Positions 42,463 through 61,276 are shown, counted from the stretch's first letter. The stretch is 64,000 nucleotides of DNA from Bacteroidota bacterium (GCA_003246455.1 QKAF01000009.1:85395-149394), one strand, 5' to 3'. Numbers and translations: made by a program. The notes: generated from the sequence alone by a model not told the origin.

Positions 42463-42598
42463 AAGATCCGCTGTAACCACTCATACTTTCTCGTGTCTAG
42501 TCGGGGAACATCGGATGCAGCCGGGGGCCGATCCGCGTTCGCCAGCGACAATCCTTCTCCTACATACAGCCTTTTCCTTACACCAGCCGGAGTTTCCC

Positions 42599-46438: not shown

Positions 46439-47779
46439 ATGTCTACCGCACTGAACGACTTCATGCAGGAAGTCAAAGCCAAGAACCCCGGAGAAGCCGA
46501 GTTTCATCAGGCAGTTGAAGAAGTTGTCGAAACGCTGATGCCGGTTGTTGAAAAGCAGCCGGAATATCGCAAGGCCAAGGTTCTTGAGCGCATGGTCGAA
46601 CCCGAGCGCACCATTTCTTTCCGTGTTCCCTGGGTCGCCGATAACGGAGAAGTCCGCGTCAACCGCGGCTACCGCATCGAGTTCAACAGCGCCATCGGTC
46701 CCTACAAGGGCGGTCTGCGGTTCCACCCGAGTGTCACCCTGAGCATTCTGAAGTTCCTCGGCTTCGAGCAGATCTTCAAGAATTCCCTCACGACGCTCCC
46801 GATGGGCGGCGGAAAGGGCGGTTCGGACTTCGACCCGAAGTTCAAATCGAAAAACGAAATCATGCGTTTCTGCCAGAGCTTTATGAGTGAACTGTTCCGT
46901 CACATCGGCCCGAACACCGACGTGCCCGCCGGCGATATCGGCGTGGGTGGACAGGAAATCGGTTTCATGTTCGGCCAGTACAAAAAGCTGAAAAATTCAT
47001 TCGACGGCGTGCTGACGGGTAAAGGCCTGAGCTGGGGCGGATCCCTCATCCGTCCGGAAGCGACCGGCTTCGGCGTCACCTACTTCGCCAATGAAATGCT
47101 CAAGACCAAGGGCCAGTCCTTCGAAGGCAAGACCGTCGCCATCTCCGGCTTCGGAAATGTCGCCTGGGGCGCGGCGATCAAGGTCAACGACATGGGCGGC
47201 AAGGTCGTCACGCTTTCCGGTCCCGACGGATACATCTTCGACCCCGCCGGCATCTCCGGTGAGAAGATCGAATACATGCTGGAGCTCCGCGCGAGCAACC
47301 AGGACATCGTCGAGCCGTATGCCGAGCGCTTTGGCGTGGAATTCATCCCCAACAAGCACCCGTGGGAAGTCAAGTGCGACGTCGCACTCCCCTGCGCGAC
47401 CCAGAACGAACTCAACGAGGAAGACGCGAAGAACCTGCTCGCAAACGGCTGCATCTGCGTATGCGAAGGCGCGAACATGCCCACCACTCCGGAAGGCGCG
47501 AAGCTGTTCCTTGATGCCGGTCTGCTCTACGGACCTGCCAAGGCGGCGAACGCCGGTGGCGTGGCCGTGTCGGGTCTCGAAATGTCGCAGAACTCCATCC
47601 GCATGAGCTGGTCGCGTGAAGAGGTGGATCAGCATCTGCATCGCATCATGAAGAATATCCACCAATCCTGCCTCGACGCCAGTGCTCAGTACGGCATGGC
47701 AGGGAATTACGTTGCCGGTGCAAACATTGCCGGATTCACGAAAGTGGCCGACGCCATGCTCGCCCAAGGCATCGTATAA
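46439..47779 (+). CDS. gdhA: NADP-specific glutamate dehydrogenase (GdhA type, 446 aa) – copy 1
   Basis: MSTALNDFMQEVKAKNP…[10 protein letters not shown]…[15 protein letters not shown]…[14 protein letters not shown]… are the canonical hexameric GDH (E. coli GdhA-like) blocks. Confidence 0.95.
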   Translation: MSTALNDFMQEVKAKNPGEAEFHQAVEEVVETLMPVVEKQPEYRKAKVLERMVEPERTISFRVPWVADNGEVRVNRGYRIEFNSAIGPYKGGLRFHPSVTLSILKFLGFEQIFKNSLTTLPMGGGKGGSDFDPKFKSKNEIMRFCQSFMSELFRHIGPNTDVPAGDIGVGGQEIGFMFGQYKKLKNSFDGVLTGKGLSWGGSLIRPEATGFGVTYFANEMLKTKGQSFEGKTVAISGFGNVAWGAAIKVNDMGGKVVTLSGPDGYIFDPAGISGEKIEYMLELRASNQDIVEPYAERFGVEFIPNKHPWEVKCDVALPCATQNELNEEDAKNLLANGCICVCEGANMPTTPEGAKLFLDAGLLYGPAKAANAGGVAVSGLEMSQNSIRMSWSREEVDQHLHRIMKNIHQSCLDASAQYGMAGNYVAGANIAGFTKVADAMLAQGIV

Positions 47780-47851: not shown

Positions 47852-50800
47852 CTATGCATGCACTTCGCCGGTCATCTCCTCGTCTTCCTTTTCCTTCTTG
47901 AACACCACCCCTGAACCGCTCTGCCCGTCGACGAGGATCTCGAGACGGTGCGGCGCGCGAACATGACGCACGTACGCGGTTTCGCCGACGATCTCGAGCG
48001 AATCGAGCCACGCCCAGTCGATGGTGTCCTCCGCCTTGTAGTGACGGGTGGTGAAATACGCGATGTGGAAAGAGGTGAGGTTCTGGAAAAAATGCGACCC
48101 CTGCGACGGATCCGGGAGCATATTCGGAAGCGACGTTTCGACGATGGCATGCGCCCCGGAAATCCCCGGGAAGCGGACCGGGATGCCCAGCCAGGGATCG
48201 GCGGAACCCCAGCGCCCCGGACCGATAAGCAGATAGGGACGCTGCTCCTCGACGAGACGCTTGTTGATTTCCGCGATCTCATTGGCCATTTCCTTCGTGC
48301 GCGCATTTTCGAAACTGTCGGGCTTCACGTAGACGATATCCCGCAGCCGGTAAATGCCGTTACCGAGCACGTTCTCGCTCTTCAGCAGCAGTTCCTCACG
48401 CCGGAGGTTTGCGAAGTCGATCTCGACGGTGCCCTCTTCCTTGACCATCGGACGCACCTGGAGGAAATCGAATTCGCTGATATCGTCGAAGTGCCGGCCG
48501 AGCACGCCCGCAAATTCGATTTCCACCGGACAGTTCATCGCCGTTTCGCAGAGTTCCATGAGCAGCCGCAGCACCTTCGCCAGCGGAATATATTCCGACT
48601 GCAGGATCGGCGCGAAATTCACGACGCGGAGTCCTTTCCGGAACGTGCCCTCGTATAGCGAATCGTCCTCTGTGCAGAACGTCGACGCGAGATAGTCGAT
48701 CGTGCCGTACTCCTCGGCGACTTTCATGTCGAGGAAATCCAGGTTTTCGTCCTCGCTCGGATCCTCTTCGAGCGGATGCGACTCGAGGTTCACGGCGAAG
48801 AACTTCTTCTGCGAATTGGTGTAATAGTCCTTCCGCGTGGCGAACTGCGGCATGATCGTCGGATACTGGGGGCAGAACTGCGCGCTGACCCCGCCGTCGA
48901 CGATGGTCTTGCCCAGCCCCACGGCGAGATTCACGATGCCGTCGGCCTGCCGGGCGTCGCCGAACGGGTAGTAGTTGAACGAGCGCGCGACCCCGGAGTA
49001 ATGCGGATAATAATGGTGCTTGTAGCGGCGGCCCGACATCTCCTGGATGATCACCGCCATCTGCTCTTCCTCGAGTCGATGGCCAGTGGCCTCGATGTAG
49101 TTTTTCGCGCCGCGGAGATAGGTCGACGCGTACACGTACTTGATCGCCTGTTCAAGCTCCTGGAATCGCGCGTACGGATCGGGATTGCTGTTCGGAAGCA
49201 TGACCGTGGCATAGATCCCGGCGAACGGCTGATACAGCGTATCCTCGAGAAGACTCGAAGACCGGATCGCGAGCGGATGCTGATTGCGCAGCACGACCGC
49301 GCGCAGATCCTCTTCGATCGTGTTCGGGAAACGGGCGTGCATGAAAAGGCTGACGATTTCCTCGTCGGGGATGTTCTGAATCACCTGCGGAAGCAGGTTG
49401 TTCAGCTCCATGAACTGCACGAAGACCTCGGTACAGAGGATGATGCTCCGAGGAATCTTGATGCGGACATTCGGGAAATACGACGGATGCAGGTAATTCT
49501 TCAGGATGTTGTCGATGAACGCCAGGCCGCGGGCCTTTCCGCCGAGGGACCCCCGGCCGATGCGCAGGAACGTGGCGCGGGAATCGAATTCCTCGTGCGA
49601 GAAATCCGCGATCAGCCCGCGCTCGTCATAGATCACGAGTTCGTCGATTTTCCGGATGATATACCGGCGCAGCGACTCGATGGTCTTGAATTCGGTGATC
49701 TTCACCGGCTTGATTTCCTGCGCCAGCCGGAAACGGGTGCGCGCCAGCAGCCAGTTGCTGAAATGATCCCGCGACGCATGGAAGAGCAGCGAATCGTCGG
49801 GAATCGTATGCAGCCGCTGGCGCAGCTGCCGGATCGTCCGCGCACGGTCGACCTCGGTTCCGTCCGGCATACGGAAGATGAACTCCCCGAAGCCGAAATT
49901 CGTGAGCATGAATTCGCGGACCTCCTGCAGCAGCGTGCGGGAATTCTTGTTCGCGAACGCGGCATCCAGCGCGTCGACCTCGTCGCGAAGATCCTCGCGC
50001 GAGGACTGCACGAGAACGGGGAGCTCCGGACTGTGTTCGCGCACCCGCCGGATGTACTTGAGTCCTGCGAATTCGTCTTCGATATCGTTGATCGGGAACT
50101 TCAGGTCGGTGATGATGCCCAGGAGTTCGTTTCGGTACTTGTGGTAGTAGCGCCATGCCTGCTCGAAATTGGTCGCGTGCAGGATCTTGGGCCGCGCGCG
50201 CTGCCGCAGGAGCTTCTCGGCGAAATTCTTGCCCTCCTCGATCAGCATCTGCCCCTGCTTGATCAGTTCGGTGTAGATCAGCGGCAGGAACGACGAGTAG
50301 AACTGCGGCGAATCCTCGACGAGAATGATGGCGCGAACCCCGAAATCCTTGCAGTCGATGCGCGCATTGGCCAGATCCTCGAGCTGCTTGATAATGGCGA
50401 GAAACAGTTTGCGGTCGCCCGACCAGACGAAGACCCGATCGAACAGATTCAGCGCGCCCTGGTTCATCAGCACCTGCAGTTCCCGGCTCTGGTAGCCGAG
50501 CAGCGCCACGGGCACGTCGGCATGCGCTTCCTTGACCGCCTGACAGAAATCCTGCAGGCGCATGTCGCCGAGGCGCATCATGGTGATGACCAGGTCGAAG
50601 CGGCTCTCATCCATCGCCGCGAGCGCGGCCTCTCCCGAGTAGACCCGCGTGATCGACGGGGCGTAATGCAGATTCAGTTCGAGGTACTCGCTGAAAATCG
50701 CCTCGGTGAGCTGCCCGTCGTCGACCAGGGTATAGAAGTCGTAGCGGCTCGATACGAGCAGGATGTTGTTGACGCGGAAGCGCATCAGATCCTTGAAATC

Positions 50801-50890
50801 CAGGTCGTGCGGACTGATATCCTTGTCGGAAAACCCGAAATCCAGAATGAGGTCGCGCAGCTCGTCGCGCTTGATCCTTTTGCGTTTCAT
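47852..50890 (-). CDS. Multidomain protein: N-terminal pseudo-receiver plus receiver-like (CheY-fold) domains fused to a PEP/pyruvate-binding ATP-grasp nucleotide-binding domain (PPDK_N-like) and a conserved C-terminal module – copy 1 (1012 aa)
   Basis: Minus-strand ATG at 50890 (MKRKRIKRDEL…). Receiver-like segments (…RFRVNNILLVSS…FDLVITMMRLGDM… and …RAIILVEDSP…LGIITDLKFP…PVLVQSS…). PPDK_N hallmark …FLRIGRGSLGGKARGLAFI… and …LAIRSSSLLED…. C-terminal …LLIGPGRWGSADPWLGIPV…SQGSHFFQNLTSFHIAYF…. Confidence 0.8.
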   Translation of the reverse strand: MKRKRIKRDELRDLILDFGFSDKDISPHDLDFKDLMRFRVNNILLVSSRYDFYTLVDDGQLTEAIFSEYLELNLHYAPSITRVYSGEAALAAMDESRFDLVITMMRLGDMRLQDFCQAVKEAHADVPVALLGYQSRELQVLMNQGALNLFDRVFVWSGDRKLFLAIIKQLEDLANARIDCKDFGVRAIILVEDSPQFYSSFLPLIYTELIKQGQMLIEEGKNFAEKLLRQRARPKILHATNFEQAWRYYHKYRNELLGIITDLKFPINDIEDEFAGLKYIRRVREHSPELPVLVQSSREDLRDEVDALDAAFANKNSRTLLQEVREFMLTNFGFGEFIFRMPDGTEVDRARTIRQLRQRLHTIPDDSLLFHASRDHFSNWLLARTRFRLAQEIKPVKITEFKTIESLRRYIIRKIDELVIYDERGLIADFSHEEFDSRATFLRIGRGSLGGKARGLAFIDNILKNYLHPSYFPNVRIKIPRSIILCTEVFVQFMELNNLLPQVIQNIPDEEIVSLFMHARFPNTIEEDLRAVVLRNQHPLAIRSSSLLEDTLYQPFAGIYATVMLPNSNPDPYARFQELEQAIKYVYASTYLRGAKNYIEATGHRLEEEQMAVIIQEMSGRRYKHHYYPHYSGVARSFNYYPFGDARQADGIVNLAVGLGKTIVDGGVSAQFCPQYPTIMPQFATRKDYYTNSQKKFFAVNLESHPLEEDPSEDENLDFLDMKVAEEYGTIDYLASTFCTEDDSLYEGTFRKGLRVVNFAPILQSEYIPLAKVLRLLMELCETAMNCPVEIEFAGVLGRHFDDISEFDFLQVRPMVKEEGTVEIDFANLRREELLLKSENVLGNGIYRLRDIVYVKPDSFENARTKEMANEIAEINKRLVEEQRPYLLIGPGRWGSADPWLGIPVRFPGISGAHAIVETSLPNMLPDPSQGSHFFQNLTSFHIAYFTTRHYKAEDTIDWAWLDSLEIVGETAYVRHVRAPHRLEILVDGQSGSGVVFKKEKEDEEMTGEVHA

Positions 50891-51025
50891 GCATACTCCC
50901 GTTTTGGGGTCAGAACCTATGAATCAATCTACGGATGGAGGCAGCGGAGCGCAAGCTGGGCGCGGAAAAGTTTTTTCCTGACGGGATTTTCCGCATTTTC
51001 GTATTACAGTGATTCGGATTTACTT

Positions 51026-51066
51026 GTAGGGTATTCCCTACATAACTCATGGCGCATTCCCTACAT
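51026..51066. promoter_or_regulatory. Palindrome GTAGGGTATTCCCTAC plus a direct repeat of ATTCCCTACAT in the divergent intergenic region between the receiver–PEP-binding gene (copy 1) and gdhA copy 2
   Basis: Palindrome at 51026-51041. ATTCCCTACAT at 51033-51043 and again at 51056-51066, inside a 388-bp non-coding region that is AT-rich compared with the rest of the window. Confidence 0.3.
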
Positions 51067-51197
51067 CTTGAGATATGGAATGATTGTACTTTTGAGTCAC
51101 GTAATTTCAAATTCATGGGTCTTAAACCCTTTTTCTCGAGCCTGAAAGCGGAACCGGATATCGTCTTCTCCAGTATTGACTGCTATACACTTCATAA

Positions 51198-52622
<1,425 letters not shown>

Positions 52623-52645
52623 TCCCATTCCACCCTCTTCCTTGC

Positions 52646-52684
52646 AAAACGCCCCGCCGCTTCTGCGACGGGGCGTTTTCATTC
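52646..52684. terminator. Bidirectional terminator between convergent gdhA copy 2 and the second receiver–PEP-binding gene
   Basis: AAAACGCCCCGCCGC-ttct-GCGACGGGGCGTTTT followed by CATTCTTT. Confidence 0.65.
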
Positions 52685-52709
52685 TTTCCGATCCTTCCGC
52701 GGCGCGCTT

Positions 52710-55700
52710 CTATGACCCGTTTCGCAGCGTCTGCTTCAGCACCGCCCCGTTGCCGGTGTGGCCGTCCACCAGGATGGTGATATCCTCCGGCGGACGCACG
52801 TGGCGCGTGTGACGCGTCTCCTCGATACAGTCGAGACTGTCGAGCCAGCTCCAGTCGATAGCGTGTTCCTCGTTGTAGTGACGGAGCGTGAAGTACGCGA
52901 TGCGGAAGGACGTGAGGTTCTGAAAGAAGTGCGACCCCTGTGAAGGATCGATGATCATGTTCGGCAGCGTGGTTTCCACGATGGCGCGCGCGGCGGAAAT
53001 GTCGGAGAAAACCACCGGGATGCCCAGCGACGGATCGCTGCTCCCCCAGCGTCCGGGACCGATCAGCAGGTACGACCGGCGCTCGTGCAGCAGGGAGTGG
53101 TTGATCGCACTGATCTCCCCGACCATCTCCCGCGTTTTCATCGCGTCGAACGTGTCCGGCTTGACGTATACGATGTCACGGACTCGCGAAATCCCGTTCC
53201 CGAGCGCCTTCTCGCAGCGGAACAGGAGCTGCTCGCCGGGCAGCGCCTCGATATCGAGATTCGCCCCGGACTCCTGCTTCACCATCGGTCGAAGCTGGAG
53301 AAAACTGAACTCGGCCGGGAGCGGCGTTCCGCTGCCGAGCCGCACCGCGAATTCAATCTCGACCGGCGCGTTCACAGCGGTCTCGCACATGTTGACGAGC
53401 AGCTTGATCACCTGGTTCAGCGGGATGATCTCCGATTTGAGTATGGGAGCGAAAGTCAGGATGCGCGGACCGCTTCGGCTCATTCCCTCGTACAGCCGGT
53501 CATCCTGTCCGGAATACGTGCTGGCCACATGCGTCAGCGTCCCGTGCGCTTCCGCGTCCTTGAGTTCCAGTTCCGCCAGGTTCTGGTCCTCCCGCGGGTA
53601 TTTCCGGATGATATCCGACTGCAGGTCGAGCGCGAAAAACTTCAGCTGGGAATTGTGAAACAGATCCCGTGTCGTGCCGAACTGGGGATACACCGTCGGG
53701 TACGCGGGCGAGAACTGCAGGCTGGTCCCGCCGTCCACGATCGTCTTTCCGAGTCCCAGCGCGAGATTGACGACACCGTCCTTCTGCGTCGCCTTCCCGA
53801 AGGGATAGTAATTGAAAGACCGGGCGACGCCGGAAACGCGCGGATAGAAATACCGTCCGTGCCGCGTTCCCACCATCTCCTGGATGATCACCGCCATCTT
53901 TTCTTCTTCGATGCGGTTCGAAGTCGCCTCGATATAGTTCTTCGCCTGGCGGAAGTACGTGGAGGCGAACACGTACTTGATCGCCTGCAGGAGATTGTGG
54001 AAGCGTACCGAGATGTCCGGACTGCTGTTCGGTATCATGATCGTGGCGTAGATCCCCGCGAACGGCTGGTACATCGCATCCTCCAGCAGCGAGGAGGAGC
54101 GTATCGCCAGCGGGAAACGGGCCTTGTCGAGGATCGCGCGCAGATCGCCCAGGATCGTCGGCGGAAGGTCCGCGTGGAGGAAGGCCCGGAGGATTTCCTG
54201 GTCGGAAACGTTCTGCACAGCGACGGAAAGCAGGTCGTTCTGCTCGACGAATTCCGCGAACACATCCGTTCCGAGCACGATGGTGCGCGGAATGGAGATG
54301 CGCATGTTGGGGAAATAATCGGGTTCGAGATATTTCCGGAGCAGATTGTCCGTGAAGGCGAGACCGCGGCCCTTCCCGCCAAGCGACCCGGAACCGATGC
54401 GAAGGAAAGTGTCTTCCGCGTCATATTCGCCGCGGGCGAAATCCGAGATCACCCCTTTCTGATCCTGCACGAGCTGTTCGTTGATCGCCATGATCAGGTA
54501 CGCCCGCAATTCGTCGATGGAGGGGAACTGGGTGACCTTCACCGGCTTCAGGCGGTTCGACAGTTCGAAGCGCGTTCGCGCCTTAAGCCAGTTGCTGAAG
54601 TGATCGCGCGATGCGTGGAACTCGAGGCAGGCGTCGGGGACGAGGTGGAGACGTTCGCGCAGTTCGCGCAGGTTTCGCGCCCGCGTGACCTCGCTGCCGT
54701 CGGGCATGCGGAAGATGAAATCTCCGAAGCCGAAGTTGTCCTTCATGAAATCGCTCAGCGACTGCAGCAGCATACGCGAGTTCTTGTCGACGAAAGACAT
54801 TCCCTCGCGCTCGATTTCGAGACGCAGTTCGGTGTTGGAAGACTGCACGAGGATCGGGAGTTCGGGATTGTCCGCGCGTACGAGACGGGCCAGTTTGAGT
54901 CCCGCCGGTTCCTCGTCGTTCCCCGCTCCGGGGAATGTCATGTCGGCGATGATGCCGAGCATGGTTCTCCGGTATTTCTCATAGAACGCGACGGCTTCCT
55001 CGAAGGAGCGCGCGAGAAAGATTTTCGGACGGGCCCGCTGCCGAAGCAGCTTGTCCGCGAAGTTCTTCCCTTCCTCGATCAGGTCCTGCACCTGCTGGAT
55101 CAGGTCGGCATACATGAGCGGGAGATACGAGGAATAAAACCACGGCGAATCCTCCACGAGAAGAATCGTGCGCACTCCGAATTCCAGGCAGTCGACGGGC
55201 GCGTTGCGCAGATCCTCGAACAGCTTGATCAGCGCGAGGAACAGCTTCCGGTCGCCCGACCAGACGAATACGTTGTCGAAACAGGTCGTATCGATCGTCT
55301 TGAGGAACATTTCGAATTCGGCGGAGGGAAACGAGAGCAGCACCATCGGAATTTCAGGATGCTGCCGCTTAACCGAAGTGCAGAACGATGCGAGATCCAT
55401 GTCCCCGAGACGCAGCATCGAGATGACGAGGTCGAAATCCTGCGACTCGAGCAGACGCAGGGCCGCTTCACCCGAATTCACCCGGACGATATGCGGCGCA
55501 TAGTGCAGGTTCAGTTCGGTGTACTCGTTGAAAATGGCCTCGGTCAGCTGGCCGTCCTCCACGAGGGTGTAATAGTCGTACAGGCTGGAGACAAGCAGGA
55601 TGTTGTTGATGCGGAAACGCATCAGATCGCGAAAATCGAGCTGCCGCGTGCGCGGAACAGCGTCACCGACCACGTGGAGTCTGATCAGGTCGGTGACTTC

Positions 55701-55727
55701 GTCAATATTTGTGGACCATGACTTCAT
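52710..55727 (-). CDS. Receiver–PEP/pyruvate-binding (PPDK_N-like) multidomain protein – copy 2 (1005 aa), paralog of 47852-50890
   Basis: Minus-strand ATG at 55727 follows AAGAGGA. Same architecture as copy 1 and roughly two-thirds identical to it: …RFRINNILLVSSLYDYY…, …RTILLVEDSP…LGIIADMTFP…, …FLRIGSGSLGGKGRGLAF…, …LIGPGRWGSSDPSLGIPV…SQGSHFFQNLTSFRIAYF… It sits 28 bp downstream of the third dehydrogenase gene on the same strand, suggesting co-transcription. Confidence 0.8.
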   Translation of the reverse strand: MKSWSTNIDEVTDLIRLHVVGDAVPRTRQLDFRDLMRFRINNILLVSSLYDYYTLVEDGQLTEAIFNEYTELNLHYAPHIVRVNSGEAALRLLESQDFDLVISMLRLGDMDLASFCTSVKRQHPEIPMVLLSFPSAEFEMFLKTIDTTCFDNVFVWSGDRKLFLALIKLFEDLRNAPVDCLEFGVRTILLVEDSPWFYSSYLPLMYADLIQQVQDLIEEGKNFADKLLRQRARPKIFLARSFEEAVAFYEKYRRTMLGIIADMTFPGAGNDEEPAGLKLARLVRADNPELPILVQSSNTELRLEIEREGMSFVDKNSRMLLQSLSDFMKDNFGFGDFIFRMPDGSEVTRARNLRELRERLHLVPDACLEFHASRDHFSNWLKARTRFELSNRLKPVKVTQFPSIDELRAYLIMAINEQLVQDQKGVISDFARGEYDAEDTFLRIGSGSLGGKGRGLAFTDNLLRKYLEPDYFPNMRISIPRTIVLGTDVFAEFVEQNDLLSVAVQNVSDQEILRAFLHADLPPTILGDLRAILDKARFPLAIRSSSLLEDAMYQPFAGIYATIMIPNSSPDISVRFHNLLQAIKYVFASTYFRQAKNYIEATSNRIEEEKMAVIIQEMVGTRHGRYFYPRVSGVARSFNYYPFGKATQKDGVVNLALGLGKTIVDGGTSLQFSPAYPTVYPQFGTTRDLFHNSQLKFFALDLQSDIIRKYPREDQNLAELELKDAEAHGTLTHVASTYSGQDDRLYEGMSRSGPRILTFAPILKSEIIPLNQVIKLLVNMCETAVNAPVEIEFAVRLGSGTPLPAEFSFLQLRPMVKQESGANLDIEALPGEQLLFRCEKALGNGISRVRDIVYVKPDTFDAMKTREMVGEISAINHSLLHERRSYLLIGPGRWGSSDPSLGIPVVFSDISAARAIVETTLPNMIIDPSQGSHFFQNLTSFRIAYFTLRHYNEEHAIDWSWLDSLDCIEETRHTRHVRPPEDITILVDGHTGNGAVLKQTLRNGS

Positions 55728-55755
55728 GGATCATCCTCTTCCGCCGGTCGGCTGC

Positions 55756-57042
55756 TCAAACCCAGCCGCGCATCTTGCAGGCTTCCGCGACGCGCGCGAT
55801 CGCGATCATATAGGCCGCGTCCCGCATCGGGATGTTCCGGCGATGCGCCATCTGCGAAACGGCAAAGTATGCATCGGTCATCTTGGTGTCGAGCTTCGCG
55901 ATCACTTCGTCGCGCGTCCAGTAGTAGTTCATGTTGCTCTGCACCTGCTCGAAGTAACTGCAGGTGACGCCGCCGGCGTTTGCAAGGAAGTCCGGGATGA
56001 GCCATATGCCTTTCTCCCGTATGACCGCGTCCGCCGCGGGAGTGGTCGGACCGTTGGCGCCCTCCGCGACGATGCGGACACCGTTCTTCATTCCCTTGAC
56101 CGTGTCGCGGTTCACCTGGTTCTCCATCGCCGCAGGGATGAGGACATCCACTTCCTGCTCGATCCAGGCGTCGCCCGGGAGCACTTCGTACCCGGCATCC
56201 GCGGCCTTGTCGCGGCTGATCTCTCCGTAGGAGTTCGTCATCGCGCGCAGCTGCCTGAGGTCCACGCCGTCTTTTTTTCTCACCGTGAAGGCCGCCTGTG
56301 CTTTCTGATCCCAGCTGGCGACGCTGATCACCTTTCCGCCGTAGGAGTGGAAGAGATCGATGGCGTGCTGTCCGACGTTGCCGAATCCCTGCACCGATGC
56401 GGTACTGTCTTCGATTCGCAGATTCATTTCCGCGAGCGCTTCGCGCACTGCGTAAATCACGCCGTAGCCGGTCGACTCGGTGCGGCCGAGCGACCCGCCC
56501 AGCCCGATGGGCTTGCCCGTGATGAATCCGGGGGCATGTTTCCCCGTGAGCGTCTCGTATTCATCCAGCATCCAGAGCATGTGCTGCGCGGATGTCATCA
56601 CGTCGGGTGCGGGCACGTCGCGGTCGGGTCCGACGCTTTCGACGATATTGCGCACCCAGCCGCGACAGAGTGCCTCCTGCTCTCGCAGCGAAAGGTTGTG
56701 CGGATCGCAGATGACGCCCCCTTTCCCGCCGCCGAGCGGAATGTCGACGACCGCCGTCTTCCAGGTCATCCACATCGAGAGCGCCCGCACGGTGTCGACG
56801 GTCTCCTGCGGATGGAAGCGCACTCCGCCTTTACAGGCGCCGCGCGCGTCATTGTGCTGGATGCGGAATCCGCGGAACACCTGGTAGCTTCCGTCGTCCA
56901 TGCGGATCGGGATGTTGAAGTGAAATTCCTTTGCCGGCGTGCGCAGCAGCGCACGGGTCGCTTCGTCAAGTCCGAGCTGTTCCGCAATCGTATCGAACTG
57001 CTGCTGCGCCATACGGAACGGGTTGAATGCTTCGCCACTCAT
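55756..57042 (-). CDS. Glu/Leu/Phe/Val dehydrogenase family protein, short (~428 aa) GDH type, probably NAD(P)-glutamate dehydrogenase – third GDH-family gene
   Basis: ATG at 57042 follows AGGAGA. MSGEAFNPFRMAQQQFD… with …GACKGGVRFHP…DIPLGGGKGGV…GPDRDVPAPDV… The 5' part of the six-frame ORF (57043-57168) is not supported. Confidence 0.9.
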   Translation of the reverse strand: MSGEAFNPFRMAQQQFDTIAEQLGLDEATRALLRTPAKEFHFNIPIRMDDGSYQVFRGFRIQHNDARGACKGGVRFHPQETVDTVRALSMWMTWKTAVVDIPLGGGKGGVICDPHNLSLREQEALCRGWVRNIVESVGPDRDVPAPDVMTSAQHMLWMLDEYETLTGKHAPGFITGKPIGLGGSLGRTESTGYGVIYAVREALAEMNLRIEDSTASVQGFGNVGQHAIDLFHSYGGKVISVASWDQKAQAAFTVRKKDGVDLRQLRAMTNSYGEISRDKAADAGYEVLPGDAWIEQEVDVLIPAAMENQVNRDTVKGMKNGVRIVAEGANGPTTPAADAVIREKGIWLIPDFLANAGGVTCSYFEQVQSNMNYYWTRDEVIAKLDTKMTDAYFAVSQMAHRRNIPMRDAAYMIAIARVAEACKMRGWV

Positions 57043-57187
57043 GCCTTGTCTCCTGGACGGTACGAAATCGGGTGGAACGGCCGCGCTCCGCAGCCCGCGA
57101 AGATGCGTCCTGAGCAGGCAAGGTATCATTTTTCCCCGGAATTTCCCTATTTTCATCCTGATCTCCACTGTTCACGGGCAGGATGCG

Positions 57188-60100
57188 ATGAACATGAACA
57201 AGAAGGAAAAATCCCTCGGCGACCTGCTGTATGCCCTCGGAGAGCGCGCCAAGGAACTGAACTGCCTCTATCATGTCGAGGAAGTTCTCTCGCGGAACGA
57301 TGCGGCGCAGGAAGAGGTGCTCAATGGAATCATCGCGGCCATCCCGCCGGGATGGCAGTTTCCGGACATCTGCCGCGTCCGAATCCGCCTCGGGAATAAA
57401 TCCTTCACCTCCCCGGAATTCCAGCCCACACAATGGAAGCTCGTTTCCTCCATCGTCGTTCAGGACAAGGTGGAGGGCAGCATCGAAGTCTACTACGCGC
57501 GCGAAGTCGGCACCGCGGACGAGGGGCCCTTCCTGCATGAAGAGCGGAAGCTGATCAACACCATCGCAGAGCGCATCGGACACTATCTCCTCCATCAGCA
57601 GCTCAGGCATGTCTTCAACGAATGGCAGACACTCAAGGAGCAGCTCGCCGAGAACAAGCGGCCGGAGTGGAAAGTCATCCTGGAAATGCTGCGCCGCACC
57701 GATCAGAACCTCTACACGCGCATTTCACGGAAGATGCTGAACCGCCTCTGCTGGTCGGGCATCAAAACCGCCTGCGAATTGATGCAGCGTTTCGGCACGC
57801 GCAACGGGGACAGCCAGGACGTCTTCGGCGAAAGCAACCGTCCCCGGCAGCGCGAGGAGCTCTACAACTTCATGTCGTCGAGCGATGAAATCTTCCAGAT
57901 AGCGGCCGAACATCTCAGCGACGAAGAAATCCTGTCACTGATCCAGAAGTGGATCAAGGACGACAAGGCGTCCTTCCTTGTCAACACGGTCGAGAATCTC
58001 GACACCTCTCTCTCCGAGATCGTCGACGCCATCGGCCGTTTCTACCATATTTTTCCTGAAGGAATTGAACTCTCGCCGTCAACCGAAAAGGGCCTGCGGG
58101 TCTCGCTGATCCGGCGATTCTTCACCGAACAGCTTCCGTACATCAATGTCGCGAAGCAGTACCTCGAGGTGCGCGATTTCGCGGAGCTCGTACGCCGCAT
58201 CATCTTCCATCAGAAAAGCCACGGGAAACTTGGGGGGAAAAGCTCGGGGCTGTTCCTCGCGGGACAGATCCTCATGAAGGAAGGCGGGGAAAGCGGCCGC
58301 TTCCCGAACGTCCGCATTCCGAAGACCTGGTACATCACATCAGACGGCATCCTGAATTTCATCCATTACAATAACCTGGAAGAGGTCTTCAACCAGAAGT
58401 ATCTCGACATCGAGCAGGTGCGCGAGGAATACCCGTCGATCATCCAGGTGTTCAAGAACTCCTATTTCTCCCCGGAATTCATCAAGGGGCTGACGATGGC
58501 GCTGGACGATTTCGGCGACATCCCCCTGATCGTCCGCAGTTCCTCGCTGCTCGAAGACAGCATGAACGCCGCGTTCTCCGGGAAATACAAAAGCCTCTTT
58601 CTCGCGAATACCGGGACGAAAGCCGAGCGGATGGCCGCGCTGCTCGATGCCATCGCGGAAGTGTATGCTTCGACTTTCGGTCCCGATCCCATCGAGTACC
58701 GCGCCGAACGCGGGCTGCTCGATTTCCACGAAGAGATGGGCATCATGATCCAGGAGGTCGTCGGCACGCGCATCGGCCGGTATCTCATGCCGGTATGGTC
58801 GGGCGTCGCGTTCAGTCACAACGAATTCCGCTGGTCGCCGCGCATCAAACGGGAAGACGGCCTGATCCGGCTCGTGCCGGGACTCGGGACGCGCGCGGTG
58901 GATCGCGTGGGAGACGATTATCCCGTGCTCATCGCACCGGGACAGCCGTCGCTCCGCGTGAACATAACACCGGATGAGATTGTCCGTTATTCTCCCAAGA
59001 AAATCGACGTCATCAATCTCGAGAGCAGCAGCTTCGAGACCGTCGATATTCTCGACCTGCTGCGTGAAACCGGACATTCCTACCCGGGCATCAACACCAT
59101 CGTCTCGCAGTATGACGGCGACACCATCCGTCAGCCGTTCGGCTTCGACCTCGATTTCGAAAAGAGCGTGTATGCGGTGACGTTCAACGGACTGATCGCC
59201 AGCACGCGCTTTCTCAAGAATATCCGGGAAATGCTGCTGCTGCTGCAGGAACGCCTCCAGACGCCCGTGGACATCGAATTCGCGTCCGACGGCAGGGACC
59301 TGTACCTCCTGCAGTGCCGGCCGCAGAGTTTCACCCGTCACAATATTCCGGCACCGATCCCGCAGGACATTCCGCGCGAACGGAAGCTGTTCACGGCGCA
59401 GCGCTACATATCGAACGGACACGTGCCCGACATCACGCATATCGTCTACGTCCATCCCGACAGGTACGCCGCCCTGCCCGACCGACAGGCGCTGCTGTCC
59501 GTCGGACGCTGCGTCGGGCGCCTGAACAAGGTTCTGCCCAAGCGCCAGTTCACCCTGATGGGTCCCGGCCGCTGGGGCAGCCGCGGCGACATCAAGCTGG
59601 GGGTGAACGTGACCTACTCCGATATCAACAACACCGCCCTGCTTGTCGAAATTGCGCACGACCTCGGCGGCTACCTCCCCGACCTCTCTTTCGGCACGCA
59701 CTTCTTCCAGGATCTCGTCGAGTCGTCGATCCGCTATCTGCCGCTGTATCCCGACGAGGCGGATGTCCATTTCAACGAAGCCTTCCTGACGCGCAGCAAA
59801 AACATTCTGGCGGACATCCTCCCCGATTACGCGTTTCTGTCCGACACGGTGTTCGTCATCGACGTCAGTGCGAGCAGCGGCGGGAAAATTCTCCGCGTGC
59901 TGATGAATGCGGAAATCGAACAGGCGGTGGGCTATCTCGAGGACCCGGTCAACGTTCAGCCGGAACCGCAGGACTTTCCCGCACCCGTGCAGCGCACCGT
60001 CGAGGATCACTGGGAATGGCGGCTGCGCATGGCCGAACGGCTCGCCAACGATCTCCATCCGGAGGACTTCGGCATCAAGGGACTGTATATCTTCGGGAGC

Positions 60101-60370
60101 ACGAAAAACGGGACAGCGGGGCCGTCGAGCGACATCGACCTGCTCGTGCATCACGACGCGAGCCCCGAGCAGATGCAGTGCATGCAGCACTGGTTTCTCG
60201 GCTGGGGGCAGAGCCTGGCCGAGGTCAACTTCCTCCGCACCGGGTATCGGAATGACAATATTCTCGATATCCACTACGTCACCGACGACGACATCGCGCG
60301 CCGCAGCAGTTACGCCGCGAAAATCAACGCCATCACCGATGCCGCGCGTCCCCTGCGCATTCATCCGTAG
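57188..60370 (+). CDS. Multidomain protein: N-terminal GAF-like region, a PEP/pyruvate-binding ATP-grasp (PPDK_N-like) domain, the shared C-terminal module, and a C-terminal Pol-beta-type nucleotidyltransferase domain (1060 aa)
   Basis: ATG at 57188 (MNMNKKEKSLGDLLYALGERAKELNCLYHV…). The 'ELNCLY' motif is seen at GAF-type sensor N-termini. PPDK_N hallmark …HQKSHGKLGGKSSGLFLA… and …LIVRSSSLLEDS…. Shared module …LMGPGRWGSRGDIKLGV…SFGTHFFQDLVESSIRYL…. C-terminal …LYIFGSTKNGTAGPSSDIDLLVHHD… matches the minimal nucleotidyltransferase motif G[GS]x9-13DxD. It is divergently transcribed from the third GDH-family gene. Confidence 0.8.
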   Translation: MNMNKKEKSLGDLLYALGERAKELNCLYHVEEVLSRNDAAQEEVLNGIIAAIPPGWQFPDICRVRIRLGNKSFTSPEFQPTQWKLVSSIVVQDKVEGSIEVYYAREVGTADEGPFLHEERKLINTIAERIGHYLLHQQLRHVFNEWQTLKEQLAENKRPEWKVILEMLRRTDQNLYTRISRKMLNRLCWSGIKTACELMQRFGTRNGDSQDVFGESNRPRQREELYNFMSSSDEIFQIAAEHLSDEEILSLIQKWIKDDKASFLVNTVENLDTSLSEIVDAIGRFYHIFPEGIELSPSTEKGLRVSLIRRFFTEQLPYINVAKQYLEVRDFAELVRRIIFHQKSHGKLGGKSSGLFLAGQILMKEGGESGRFPNVRIPKTWYITSDGILNFIHYNNLEEVFNQKYLDIEQVREEYPSIIQVFKNSYFSPEFIKGLTMALDDFGDIPLIVRSSSLLEDSMNAAFSGKYKSLFLANTGTKAERMAALLDAIAEVYASTFGPDPIEYRAERGLLDFHEEMGIMIQEVVGTRIGRYLMPVWSGVAFSHNEFRWSPRIKREDGLIRLVPGLGTRAVDRVGDDYPVLIAPGQPSLRVNITPDEIVRYSPKKIDVINLESSSFETVDILDLLRETGHSYPGINTIVSQYDGDTIRQPFGFDLDFEKSVYAVTFNGLIASTRFLKNIREMLLLLQERLQTPVDIEFASDGRDLYLLQCRPQSFTRHNIPAPIPQDIPRERKLFTAQRYISNGHVPDITHIVYVHPDRYAALPDRQALLSVGRCVGRLNKVLPKRQFTLMGPGRWGSRGDIKLGVNVTYSDINNTALLVEIAHDLGGYLPDLSFGTHFFQDLVESSIRYLPLYPDEADVHFNEAFLTRSKNILADILPDYAFLSDTVFVIDVSASSGGKILRVLMNAEIEQAVGYLEDPVNVQPEPQDFPAPVQRTVEDHWEWRLRMAERLANDLHPEDFGIKGLYIFGSTKNGTAGPSSDIDLLVHHDASPEQMQCMQHWFLGWGQSLAEVNFLRTGYRNDNILDIHYVTDDDIARRSSYAAKINAITDAARPLRIHP

Positions 60371-60415: not shown

Positions 60416-61276
60416 TCAGAGCAGTTCCCGCGTTGCGTTCTGCGGAAATTCGGGATCGAAGCGGACCAGCGCGAGCTCGGGACCGCGATGCGCGGCGCTG
60501 TAACACCAGCTGTCTCCGAGTTTTTCCTGCCAGCTTCCGGTGATGGAGGCGGATTCGTGGATATGTCCGTGCAGGGTGATGCGGGGCTGCCGCTTGAGGA
60601 TGAATTTCCTGATCGCGACGCTGCCCACGTGCACGTCCACCGGCGCATGATCGATTTTCCTGCCGTCGAGCGCGGCCCGGTCGAGCGCCGTATTATAGGG
60701 CGGCGCGTGAAAGAGCATGATGGCCTGCGAAAGATCCGTATCCCCGGCAAGCTCCTCCAGGTCGGCCTGTATGGTCGCGTAGCGAATTTCCGACGGATTG
60801 ACCGGAATGCTCCGCCGTCCCTCTTCGGGCGATACGCAGCCCGGATCCACGTAACGCGACACGTCGTACCGCTCCCAGTCCTTGAGCTGGAACGGCGAGG
60901 GCGGCACATAGCTGTATCCATACGCGGTATACCCGCCGATCGAATCGCTGCCGCCGTGCAGATACGTCCACAGCGCGGCAAACCGCGATTCGCGCAGCGA
61001 TGCCTCGACCCGACGCGGGTCGTCGTTCCCGAGGATGAGGAAGACCCGGGGATACTGTTCGCCCAAGGCCTCCGAGAGCCGGCGGAGCTGCGCCGCGAGA
61101 TAATCCTCGATGAAATCCGCGACGACGGGAAATTGTGCCGCGGCCGCGCGATGGGCACCCGGAAGCAGATCTCCGCCGAAGAAAACGGCAGCGGGATGCT
61201 CGCGCTCGATCGCATTGAAAAGCTGTTCGTAACGGCGCTGATGTCCGTGCAGGTCGGAGACGAAAAAACAGTTCAT
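60416..61276 (-). CDS. Calcineurin-like metallophosphoesterase
   Basis: MNCFFVSDLHGHQRRYEQL…VFFGGDLLPG…GNDD… are the classic metallophosphoesterase (MPP) motifs DxH…GD…GNH/D. Confidence 0.8.
   Translation of the reverse strand: MNCFFVSDLHGHQRRYEQLFNAIEREHPAAVFFGGDLLPGAHRAAAAQFPVVADFIEDYLAAQLRRLSEALGEQYPRVFLILGNDDPRRVEASLRESRFAALWTYLHGGSDSIGGYTAYGYSYVPPSPFQLKDWERYDVSRYVDPGCVSPEEGRRSIPVNPSEIRYATIQADLEELAGDTDLSQAIMLFHAPPYNTALDRAALDGRKIDHAPVDVHVGSVAIRKFILKRQPRITLHGHIHESASITGSWQEKLGDSWCYSAAHRGPELALVRFDPEFPQNATRELL

Follow-up and report, generated by a model that had tools for sequence, protein, structure and literature searches.

Gene pairs at the locus

The stretch of DNA analyzed here, called the window in what follows, spans 64,000 nucleotides from a Bacteroidota bacterium and contains three pairs, each made up of a glutamate dehydrogenase (GDH) gene and a gene for a large protein with a PPDK_N (PF01326) ATP-grasp domain (Table 1). 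One type of pair, gdhA with a receiver-PPDK_N gene, is itself duplicated. The three large proteins are referred to as A, B and C, and an entry from a 214-kb Bacteroidota-like contig (P0121) is 100% identical to A. C starts at position 57188 with an ATG and not with the GTG at 56939, because an open reading frame from the GTG would overlap the divergent GDH gene; a homologue of C from another locus (L045) is likewise 1060 aa long.

Table 1. Genes, domains and conserved sites of the three GDH/PPDK_N pairs; positions are counted from the first letter of the window.
Feature	Position	Strand	Description
GDH1, NADP-specific glutamate dehydrogenase	46439..47779	+	convergent with A; NF006929 746 bits (cutoff 536); Pfam
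Protein A	47852..50890	-	1012 aa; two receiver-like regions, weak DUF5752, PPDK_N ATP-grasp, C-terminal module
C-terminal module of A	47855..48409	-	aa 828-1012; without Pfam match
Invariant His933 codon of A	48092..48094	-	within SQGSHFF
GPGRWGS of A	48203-48223	-	aa 890
PPDK_N (PF01326) ATP-grasp of A	48437..49549	-	aa 448-818; E=4e-37, 128.6 bits (cutoff 27)
GDH2, NADP-specific glutamate dehydrogenase	51279..52622	+	73% identical to GDH1; convergent with B
Protein B	52710..55727	-	1005 aa; architecture as A; 61% identical to A
C-terminal module of B	52713..53246	-	aa 828-1005
His933 codon of B	52929-52931	-	
GPGRWGS of B	53040-53060	-	aa 890
PPDK_N of B	53262..54386	-	aa 448-822; E=1.3e-39, 136.8 bits
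GDH3, archaeal/halo-type glutamate dehydrogenase-like	55756..57045	-	probable ATG 57045; divergent from C
Protein C	57188..60370	+	1060 aa; ~340-aa N-terminal region without assignment, PPDK_N, module, NTP_transf_2
PPDK_N of C	58226..59365	+	E=1.7e-58, 198.9 bits
Module of C	59375..59998	+	ends at nucleotidyltransferase domain
GPGRWGS of C	59561-59581	+	aa 875 (numbered on 1143-codon ORF)
Invariant His codon of C	59699-59701	+	SFGTHFF
NTP_transf_2 core of C	60065..60172	+	PF01909, 33.5 bits (cutoff 21); G-S...D-I-D motif intact
Calcineurin-like metallophosphoesterase	60416..61276	-	PF00149; convergent with C; conserved cluster member

The ATP-grasp domains, at 129-199 bits against PF01326 in A, B and C, are clear members of the group that contains rifampin phosphotransferase (RPH), PEP synthase, PPDK and PigC. 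The domain looks active, since 94 sequences, C included, share without exception the GGK, RSSS..ED, EIEFA and LQxRP motifs, which in PPDK enzymology bind the nucleotide and Mg. In a predicted two-domain model of ATP-grasp and module (pTM 0.88), the ATP-grasp part is matched by Foldseek to RPH, PEP synthase and PPDK structures (5hv1, 2ols and 1kbl; E 3e-13 to 1e-9). Beyond this domain the family departs from these enzymes: it lacks PF00391, the PEP-utilizers_C domain and the rifampin-binding domain, its fusions are to receiver domains, DUF5752 or a nucleotidyltransferase, and its genes are linked to gdh rather than to gluconeogenesis or antibiotic resistance. In A, B and C specifically, Pfam searches detected no PF02896 (PEP-utilizers_C) and no third substrate-binding domain.

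The receiver domain of A and B is recognized by Pfam (PF00072, 49.1 and 38.7 bits; cutoff 30.2). Judging from the residues, the first receiver-like region appears to carry Met at the position of the expected acceptor Asp (DLVITM), and the second appears to retain it (IITDLKFP). C belongs to PF01909, and GLYIFGSTKNGTAGPSSDIDLLV in this protein reads as the G-S...D-x-D catalytic motif.

A C-terminal module with one invariant histidine

A first-pass annotation of the window had pointed out an unrecognized block common to the three PPDK_N proteins, and the strings it quoted occur exactly in A, B and C. The block, estimated there at ~90 aa, is the core of a larger conserved unit of ~185 aa. This unit begins just past the LQxRP motif that closes PPDK_N; in A and B it takes up the rest of the protein, and in C it extends to the nucleotidyltransferase domain. 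The similarity among the three modules is far above chance in BLASTP, those of A and B being 65% identical (E=1e-84) and those of A and C 33% identical over 138 aa (E=7e-18). The module follows PPDK_N directly, with a gap of a few residues, in all 12 proteins scanned; minimal family members consist of these two domains only (e.g., P0248, 586 aa), and the Pfam domains found among the 240 homologues listed are PF01326, PF00072 and PF19027. The family comprises ~2,500 clusters at 50% identity from at least 598 species.

That the module is distinct from catalogued domains was borne out: searches covering the module region gave no match in Pfam, NCBIfam or PDB sequences, and the AlphaFold2 model, one compact alpha/beta domain with a pLDDT of 89, gave no Foldseek match with E<0.01 in PDB or BFVD. 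Literature searches for the module family likewise found nothing.

The same annotation had held that the candidate histidine of the block was not conserved, having probably looked at the H/R/S position of LTSF(H/R)IAYF. The His of S-x-G-(S/T/A)-H-F-F is in fact invariant and present in A, B and C (His933 in A and B; His921 of the 1143-codon ORF of C, equal to His838 of the 1060-aa protein). It is found in 106/106 sequences of one alignment and in 362/363 of a larger one, where R893, G902, E918, S929 and G931 are conserved alongside it, and it is the sole invariant His in the 573-residue ATP-grasp and module core (94 sequences). In the model, His933 is residue 119 and lies where helix 118-126 starts, the helix N-terminal position of the histidine in PF00391, and the invariant residues gather in loops after parallel strands and at a helix N-terminus. 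A-type and C-type modules, only ~30% identical, have in common Gly-rich loops together with Arg, Asp, Glu, Ser and His, a pattern that looks like an active site.

Comparison with the phosphohistidine swivel domain

To our knowledge, every characterized PPDK_N ATP-grasp enzyme works via a swivel-type phosphohistidine domain. The module resembles the PF00391 swivel of PEP synthase, PPDK, PTS enzyme I and RPH in following PPDK_N, as the swivel does in PEP synthase, in having a single invariant His where a helix begins, preceded by a small-residue loop (G-S/T-H), in ending with a VDGxxGxV-like hairpin, and in that the protein offers no other candidate for a His carrier. It differs in its length (~185 aa against the 72 positions of the Pfam model), in the invariant GxGRWGS, E and SxGxHFF that it has instead of GGxTSHAAIxAR, and in the absence of HMM, profile-profile or Foldseek similarity.

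The first-pass annotation had concluded that the module is probably something other than a PF00391 swivel, and this conclusion holds in hmmscan, hhalign and Foldseek, although the histidine argument behind it was wrong. At E<=10, hmmscan against Pfam detected no PF00391 on whole A, B or C or on the isolated modules, whereas the same tool scored E. coli PpsA at 102 bits and PtsI at 85 bits (gathering score 23.1 bits); with filters off, the swivel HMM gave the modules 5 bits at most. The profile-profile comparison that the annotation had proposed, run with hhalign, gave no confident match (0.5% probability for the module, 363 sequences, against a diverse set of 23 PF00391 sequences). Across hhalign runs the probability was 0.1-0.5%, compared with 99.5% for a positive control of EI-type against PpsA/RPH-type swivel domains. 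With relaxed gaps, the score of 58 was ~2 SD above that of column-shuffled templates (46 +/- 5.8, maximum 61.8), and His did not fall on His. The signature GG-x-(T/S)-S-H-(A/S)-A-I-x-A-R, seen in the consensus of 23 genuine swivel domains as GGrTsHaAIvARe.GiPav, has only G-(S/T)-H in common with S-Q-G-S-H-F-F-Q-N-L of the module. The structural comparison, also proposed there, placed no PPDK, EI, PEP synthase or RPH chain among the 50 Foldseek matches listed for the module alone, and none had E<0.01. Nor was a canonical swivel domain encoded nearby, since none was found in the family proteins or within ~8 kb of them, and PF00391 was likewise absent from 4,556 ORFs of a six-frame translation covering the window and ~86 related loci, mostly in other genomes (best E 0.8, filters off). 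Split PPDK_N genes on plasmids, in contrast, adjoin 'PEP-utilizing enzyme' genes.

These results bear on the possibility that the module is a true PF00391 homologue, extremely diverged and with ~50 residues inserted, the proteins then being odd dikinases of the PEP-utilizer type. Its position directly after PPDK_N is that of the PEP synthase swivel, and the model runs through a hairpin, two strands, a Gly-rich loop that bears the His, a helix, a strand and a last VDGxxGxGV hairpin, a succession that can be overlaid by eye on PpsA GAGPVKVI / DVLVTD..DPDW / AIVTN..GGRTCH / PAVVG / VTV..GDTGYVY. Moreover, the two-domain Foldseek alignments cover 650-700 columns with PPDK, as against ~385-470 with RPH and PEP synthase, and therefore probably extend through the PPDK His domain. 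Set against the silent hmmscan and near-silent swivel HMM, the hhalign probabilities far below the control, a relaxed-gap score within the shuffled range and the Foldseek result for the module alone, such an origin seems unlikely. It concerns ancestry, and would be compatible with the phosphohistidine function proposed below.

The first-pass annotation had also suggested a target-binding domain. Nothing was found that favors passive binding; the conserved residues resemble an active site, and the module takes the position of the PEP synthase phosphohistidine domain in proteins with no other His carrier. In that role the module would be a non-catalytic docking domain, presenting GDH or another substrate to the ATP-grasp domain for direct phosphorylation or ligation with no His intermediate. 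The two domains are confidently modelled in a fixed arrangement (pTM 0.88), which would be more in keeping with a lid that binds substrate than with a carrier that swivels, and RPH, itself matched by Foldseek, has a non-His domain, the rifampin-binding domain, after its ATP-grasp domain. Characterized PPDK_N enzymes, however, all use a His carrier as far as we know, for which the module is the sole candidate here, and its Gly, Arg, Asp, Glu, Ser and His lie in loops typical of catalytic or phosphate-binding sites rather than on a docking surface, so that we regard docking as an improbable role. Rigid packing of the module against the ATP-grasp domain, as predicted here, is another difference from the PF00391 swivel, and the high pTM may in itself speak against a swivelling carrier.

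Linkage to glutamate dehydrogenase and a proposed phosphotransfer core

Of 80 loci, drawn from more than 10 phyla, 31 have a GDH gene directly adjacent (<600 bp) to the module gene and 42 have one within 8 kb; the remaining 38 loci have no GDH gene within 8 kb, many of these contigs being short. GDH3-type genes lie directly upstream of module genes in at least 16 loci. Homologues of the metallophosphoesterase occur in 16/80 loci. A collinear arrangement of gdh, a short ATP-grasp and module gene, and a long gene adding the nucleotidyltransferase recurs in 16 loci, and in 12 of these a metallophosphoesterase gene lies next to it. Cultured Parabacteroides merdae has the same GDH context, as do relatives at 47-48% identity, while P0185 adjoins a histidine kinase gene and another PPDK_N gene instead of GDH. 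Gene context thus suggests a GDH-directed modification system. Linkage of this kind fits equally with GDH as protein target, with a small-molecule substrate and with mere co-regulation.

We propose that PPDK_N and the module form a two-domain catalytic core, a distinct and uncharacterized branch of the PEP-synthase/PPDK/rifampin-phosphotransferase superfamily, in which the module would replace the PF00391 phosphohistidine swivel domain with no detectable similarity to it in sequence or fold searches. Its invariant His, which follows a Gly-rich loop and stands where a helix begins, would accept a phosphoryl or pyrophosphoryl group from the ATP-grasp domain, and the GxGRWGS loop, Asp, Glu and Ser, all invariant, would form the transfer site. 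The phosphate would most likely be passed to GDH itself or to something in its immediate chemistry, because linkage of the family genes to gdh extends across phyla. Receiver domains would control the core in A and B, and in C it would act fused to a nucleotidyltransferase. The domain itself, its obligatory fusion after PPDK_N, the conserved residues, the lack of a canonical His domain and the GDH linkage are observed; from them we infer His phosphorylation, the identity of the target and a regulatory role. As a whole, a non-canonical phosphoryl-accepting His domain, standing in for the swivel and linked to GDH, is the best explanation, to which we assign a probability of roughly 45%.

Phosphorylation of a histidine outside a swivel domain is known from succinyl-CoA synthetase and ATP-citrate lyase, where an ATP-grasp domain phosphorylates a His that lies within a Gly-rich loop, at the start of a helix, in an alpha/beta domain of a non-swivel type. 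This is a precedent by analogy; the ATP-grasp subfamily differs, and no succinyl-CoA synthetase chain was among the 50 Foldseek matches listed for the module.

A different role would be that of an allosteric sensor, binding 2-oxoglutarate, glutamate or a nucleotide and gating the ATP-grasp domain. The helix N-terminus and the Gly-rich GxGRWGS loop, which follows a beta-strand, are similar to sites that bind anions or nucleotides, and sensing of 2-oxoglutarate or glutamate is plausible given the GDH context. Yet the ATP-grasp domain would be left with no phosphoryl acceptor domain, A and B already have receiver domains as inputs, and the minimal 580-aa proteins would have no output, which makes a sensor highly improbable.

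Several central enzymes are controlled by covalent modification, as in the cases of GlnE with glutamine synthetase, AceK with isocitrate dehydrogenase and PDRP with PPDK. The loci described here resemble these systems in that genes for ATP-using modifiers (here with NTP_transf_2 and a phosphoesterase) cluster with the gene of a central nitrogen or carbon enzyme; the family is unrelated to them except for the generic pol-beta-type nucleotidyltransferase fold of C, and GDH modification is hypothetical. Bolder still, and doubtful, is a combined proposal in which the module defines a new class of (pyro)phosphohistidine domain and, beside gdh, the short protein, the long nucleotidyltransferase protein and the metallophosphoesterase make up an unknown system for reversible covalent modification of GDH. 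If true, such a system would extend from gut Parabacteroides to Acidobacteriota and Planctomycetota, and the receiver-fused A and B would place it under two-component control.

The family keeps an apparently active ATP-grasp domain and exchanges the swivel for an unrelated-looking domain built around one invariant His, and it may represent either a new solution to His-mediated phosphotransfer or new chemistry for the PPDK_N ATP-grasp class. In one of two earlier accounts for which we know of no molecular explanation, Bacteroides GDH was reportedly inactivated reversibly in vivo; the module family is a candidate for explaining them, provided that the B. thetaiotaomicron gene concerned should prove to be a member. 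The family is sizeable and includes the abundant human-gut Parabacteroides, and its GDH linkage across phyla provides a genetically testable hypothesis, that GDH, an enzyme at the junction of carbon and nitrogen metabolism, may be under post-translational control.

Extent and predicted fold of the shared C-terminal module

The three large PPDK_N proteins of the window, referred to as A, B and C, share a C-terminal domain, the module, which lies downstream of the PPDK_N ATP-grasp domain. The three sequence strings quoted in the first-pass annotation are found exactly in A, B and C, and the region following the LQxRP motif can be aligned across all three (65% identity between the modules of A and B, E=1e-84; 33% across 138 aa between those of A and C, E=7e-18), but the conserved unit comprises ~185 aa rather than the ~90 aa originally described. 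A Pfam scan detected neither PF00391, the swivel phosphohistidine domain of PEP synthase (PpsA), PPDK, enzyme I (PtsI) and rifampin phosphotransferase (RPH), nor PF02896 (PEP-utilizers_C) in A, B or C. The start codon of C is almost certainly the ATG at 57188, chosen because the resulting 1060 aa equal the length of the homologue in locus L045; the mechanical ORF begins at a GTG (56939) and overlaps the 5' end of the divergent ORF of GDH3, one of three glutamate dehydrogenases in the window. Given this ATG for C, the intergenic gap to GDH3 (probable ATG at 57045) is ~140 bp.

Features of the window discussed in the text (nucleotide positions in the window)
Feature	Position	Strand	Description
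Paralogue 1	40201-42246	+	681 aa
Paralogue 2	42515-44662	+	715 aa; adjacent to paralogue 1
GDH1	46439-47779	+	NADP-specific GdhA, 746 bits vs cutoff 536; adjoins A
A	47852-50890	-	1012 aa; Response_reg, weak DUF5752, PPDK_N aa 448-818 (Pfam)
Module of A	47855-48409	-	aa 828-1012; alignment downstream of PPDK_N
Invariant His codon of A	48092-48094	-	His933
First receiver-like region of A	50480-50770	-	~aa 40-136
GDH2	51279-52622	+	NADP-specific GdhA, 780 bits vs cutoff 536; adjoins B
B	52710-55727	-	1005 aa; Response_reg, weak DUF5752, PPDK_N aa 448-822 (Pfam)
Module of B	52713-53246	-	Alignment downstream of PPDK_N
Invariant His codon of B	52929-52931	-	His933
GDH3	55756-57045	-	Archaeal/halo type; adjoins C
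C	57188-60370	+	1060 aa; PPDK_N and C-terminal NTP_transf_2 (Pfam)
N-terminal region of C	57188-58225	+	~340 aa
Module of C	59375-59998	+	Alignment downstream of PPDK_N
Invariant His codon of C	59699-59701	+	
Metallophosphoesterase	60416-61276	-	Calcineurin-like; convergent with C

Outside the module, sequence reading places a Met at the expected phospho-acceptor Asp of the first of the two receiver-like regions in A and B (FDLVITMMRLGDM), which may be a pseudo-receiver, while the second (~aa 186-313), read in the same way, retains the acidic pocket and the Asp (LVEDSP ... IITDLKFP). The N-terminal region of C recurs in 37 of 80 loci without matching any Pfam or NCBIfam entry, a second unassigned conserved region of the system. 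Further upstream in the window, the central regions of the two adjacent paralogues are near-identical, and in L045 their homologue has a type IX secretion signal (Por_Secre_tail) together with faint BNR repeats, which is consistent with a Bacteroidota-group origin of the window.

The AlphaFold2 model built from a 106-sequence alignment presents the module as a single compact alpha/beta domain (mean pLDDT 89.2, pTM 0.87). Counting from A aa 815 as residue 1, a beta-hairpin (residues 20-41) bearing LGNG and IVYVKPD is followed by a long helix (48-67), by the strand YLLIGP (72-77) leading into the invariant GRWGS loop, and by the strand AIVE (99-105); a loop with S-x-G-S/T-H then precedes the helix HFFQNL (118-126), a further strand (130-133) and, last in the module, a three-stranded sheet ending in VDGxxGxGV.

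Comparison with the PF00391 swivel domain

The proposal that the module is a degenerate PF00391 domain began as a by-eye match, in which IVYV, LLIG..DPW, AIVE, G-S-H and VDGxxGxGV find counterparts, in the same order, in the swivel domain of E. coli PpsA, and it was rejected as a demonstrable relationship after profile tests. Searched with hmmscan against Pfam, the isolated modules gave no PF00391 match at E<=10, whereas E. coli PpsA and PtsI scored 102 and 85 bits with the same tool. Single-sequence and profile searches of NCBIfam and PDB sequences likewise yielded no match over the module; the PDB-sequence profile search gave only longin-domain matches at E ~0.1, which were judged spurious.

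For profile-profile comparison, the swivel templates combined the domains of E. coli PpsA and PtsI with those of 41 viral-contig PpsA loci and 13 diverse plasmid genes (PpsA, enzyme I and 'PEP-utilizing enzyme' types). With hhalign, the module alignment (363 sequences, Neff 3.95) matched the full template (Neff 5.2) with a probability of 0.5% and a narrower one with 0.1%, against 99.5% (E=4e-22) for the positive control of EI-type versus non-EI swivel domains, and no signal was obtained against the single PpsA and PtsI sequences. When gap penalties were relaxed for insertions, the score of 58 lay only ~2 SD over that of column-shuffled templates (46 +/- 5.8, maximum 61.8), and His was not placed on His. 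A swivel HMM with all filters off gave the modules at most 5 bits. The viral-contig loci, gathered for this control alignment only, include full-length homologues of PEP synthase, with 49-56% identity over the part of E. coli PpsA that was aligned, on GVMAG-named IMG/VR contigs, which are labelled as giant-virus metagenome-assembled genomes (L017-L019, L021, L026, L027, L029-L031, L033-L036, L042, L044).

Structure prediction had been proposed in the first-pass annotation as a check for the swivel fold. Foldseek searches with the module model returned nothing with E<0.01 and no query-normalised TM above 0.3 among 350,542 PDB chains, and nothing in BFVD. A swivel homologue too remote to detect is nevertheless to be weighed, since the two-domain model (A aa 440-1012) aligns in Foldseek over 650-700 columns to PPDK chains and over ~385-470 to RPH and PEP synthase; judged by length, the PPDK alignments probably extend through the PPDK His domain, which is a weak hint. 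With hmmscan, hhalign, the relaxed-gap score, the swivel HMM and Foldseek of the module alone all giving it no support, such remote homology appears unlikely. The module is no demonstrable member of PF00391, in line with the earlier suspicion of a distinct domain.

The invariant histidine and the search for other candidate carriers

The same annotation had considered the candidate His not conserved, which is wrong for the His of G(S/T)HFFQ. A, B and C all have this residue, which is invariant in 106 of 106 members of the family of module-bearing homologues and kept in 362 of the 363 sequences of a broader set. That set was picked by the pattern G.G.WG, so that the invariance of those four positions there holds by construction, positions outside the pattern being unaffected. 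Across 94 aligned sequences of the ATP-grasp plus module core, C among them, this residue (H494 in that alignment) is the sole invariant His, and no second His is conserved at >=90%. Other invariant or near-invariant residues of the module are G890, G892, R893, W894, G895, D898 (near-invariant), L901, G902, E918, S929, G931 and F935, and those that are invariant lie in loops and resemble an active site. The GGK, RSSS..ED, EIEFA and LQxRP motifs of the ATP-grasp domain are also invariant, and this domain has rifampin phosphotransferase, PEP synthase and PPDK as structural neighbours (E 3e-13 to 1e-9); within the PPDK_N superfamily, this half is unexceptional. In the conserved core of the family, an ATP-grasp domain whose nucleotide-binding motifs are intact is joined to a domain bearing the sole invariant His.

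To our knowledge, phosphate transfer in the characterised PPDK_N enzymes (PPDK, PEP synthase, glucan water dikinase, RPH, phenylphosphate synthase and PigC/RedH) always runs via the His of a PF00391 domain, which lies in cis or is encoded by an adjacent gene. The split form is exemplified on plasmids, where 'PEP-utilizing enzyme' genes adjoin 'PEP/pyruvate-binding domain-containing protein' genes. Near the family genes, an unfiltered search with a diverse swivel HMM detected no trans-encoded swivel domain (best E 0.8) among 4,556 six-frame ORFs from the window and ~86 related loci of <=16-23 kb, mostly from other genomes. In the absence of a swivel domain in cis or nearby, the module, with its sole invariant His, is the sole candidate carrier; the chance that this His acts as a phosphate acceptor is put at about even. 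The confident, fixed packing of the two-domain model (pLDDT 90.4, pTM 0.88) favours instead a non-catalytic substrate-docking domain, close to the target-binding role first imagined, although we regard this as improbable; a role as allosteric sensor is less probable still.

Distribution of the family and its linkage to glutamate dehydrogenase

Among 1.84 billion representatives of 50%-identity clusters, the module profile matches 2,503 at E<=1e-3 and 1,716 at E<=1e-10, and a scan of one genome per species places the family in at least 598 species. Its carriers include, within the Bacteroidota, Prevotella, Alloprevotella, Parabacteroides, Rikenellaceae and Lutibacter, and further Ignavibacteria, Planctomycetota, Acidobacteriota, Desulfobacterales, Gemmatimonadota, Fibrobacterota, Eisenbacteria, Chloroflexota and one Thermoplasmata fragment. 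Protein lengths fall into four groups: ~580 aa, with PPDK_N and module alone (e.g., P0248); ~720-770 aa, with DUF5752 in addition; ~1,000 aa, with receiver domains in addition; and ~1,500 aa, with two ATP-grasp plus module units per chain. In nine representatives of these classes, the module starts where PPDK_N ends and has no other partner in Pfam. Most of the short, apparently stand-alone matches are pieces of full-length genes, either fragments or halves split by a frameshift, as with P0005 and P0208 on one 65.6-kb contig and P0002 and P0198 on one 6.2-kb contig, and give no evidence for a free-standing module. The second module of the double-unit proteins P0241, P0242 and P0243 (1523-1654 aa) is 58-61% identical to that of C, a Rosetta-stone hint that short and long paralogues work together. 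Members are labelled by NCBI 'PEP/pyruvate-binding domain-containing protein', 'response regulator' or 'histidine kinase', the module is annotated in none of the sources checked, and a literature search returned nothing relevant on the family, on DUF5752 or on a link between PPDK_N and GDH.

Strong linkage ties the family to gdh, a paralogue that bears a nucleotidyltransferase domain, and a phosphoesterase gene. In the window, three gdh genes alternate with the three PPDK_N plus module genes, and since GDH1 and GDH2 are 73% and A and B 61% identical, the pair of gdhA and receiver-PPDK_N-module gene appears to have been duplicated in tandem as a unit. A GDH gene lies within 8 kb in 42 of 80 genome loci and less than 600 bp from the module gene in 31; at 1-3 gdh per 3-5 Mb, well under one chance occurrence is estimated for the ~1.1 Mb examined. 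Sixteen loci (L055, L059, L067-L069, L071, L074, L082, L084, L088, L094, L096, L097, L115-L117), from Ignavibacteria, Planctomycetota, Acidobacteriota, Eisenbacteria, Alphaproteobacteria and several unclassified MAGs, show a collinear cluster of a GDH3-type gdh, a short ATP-grasp plus module gene and a C-type gene (N-terminal region, ATP-grasp, module and NTP_transf_2), followed in 12 by a calcineurin-like metallophosphoesterase gene, and this cluster looks like a dedicated system around GDH. Homologues of the metallophosphoesterase, which could be a reversing phosphatase or phosphodiesterase, occupy the same relative place in 16 of the 80 loci, and, beyond the collinear sixteen, four loci (L054, L056, L063, L099) unite a receiver-fused gene, a C-type gene and gdh. 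The linkage persists at 47-48% identity (P0217, P0236) and in cultured Parabacteroides merdae, with gdh oriented divergently to the family gene and two Metallophos genes after the latter (L144 11150-13247); an exception is P0185, which adjoins a histidine kinase and another PPDK_N gene. A tie to gdhA of B. thetaiotaomicron stayed a lead only, the guessed neighbour BT1971 being a catalase and the homology search being dominated by Parabacteroides. In two relatives at 47-48% identity (L046 3697-7974; L050 3475-7790), AlaDh_PNT_N, Sacchrp_dh and Aldedh genes directly precede the receiver-PPDK_N-module gene, with a GDH gene downstream, which suggests a saccharopine-type lysine degradation route. 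Such degradation yields glutamate.

Taking sequence conservation, domain architecture and gene linkage as the basis of all functional statements, we propose that the ATP-grasp domain would load His933 with a phosphoryl or pyrophosphoryl group, that the module would hand this group onward to GDH or a GDH-linked metabolite, that the phosphoesterase would undo the modification, and that the receiver domains of A and B and the N-terminal region of C would set the activity. A complete reversible GDH-modification system of this kind is judged doubtful, and the tentative reading that combines a His acceptor with a GDH-related target is given a probability of roughly 0.45. Of the PF00391 features testable here, the module shares only the invariant His at the N-terminus of a helix directly after the ATP-grasp domain, and we therefore file these proteins, which go unmentioned in the literature searched, as new variant dikinases with a non-canonical His domain.
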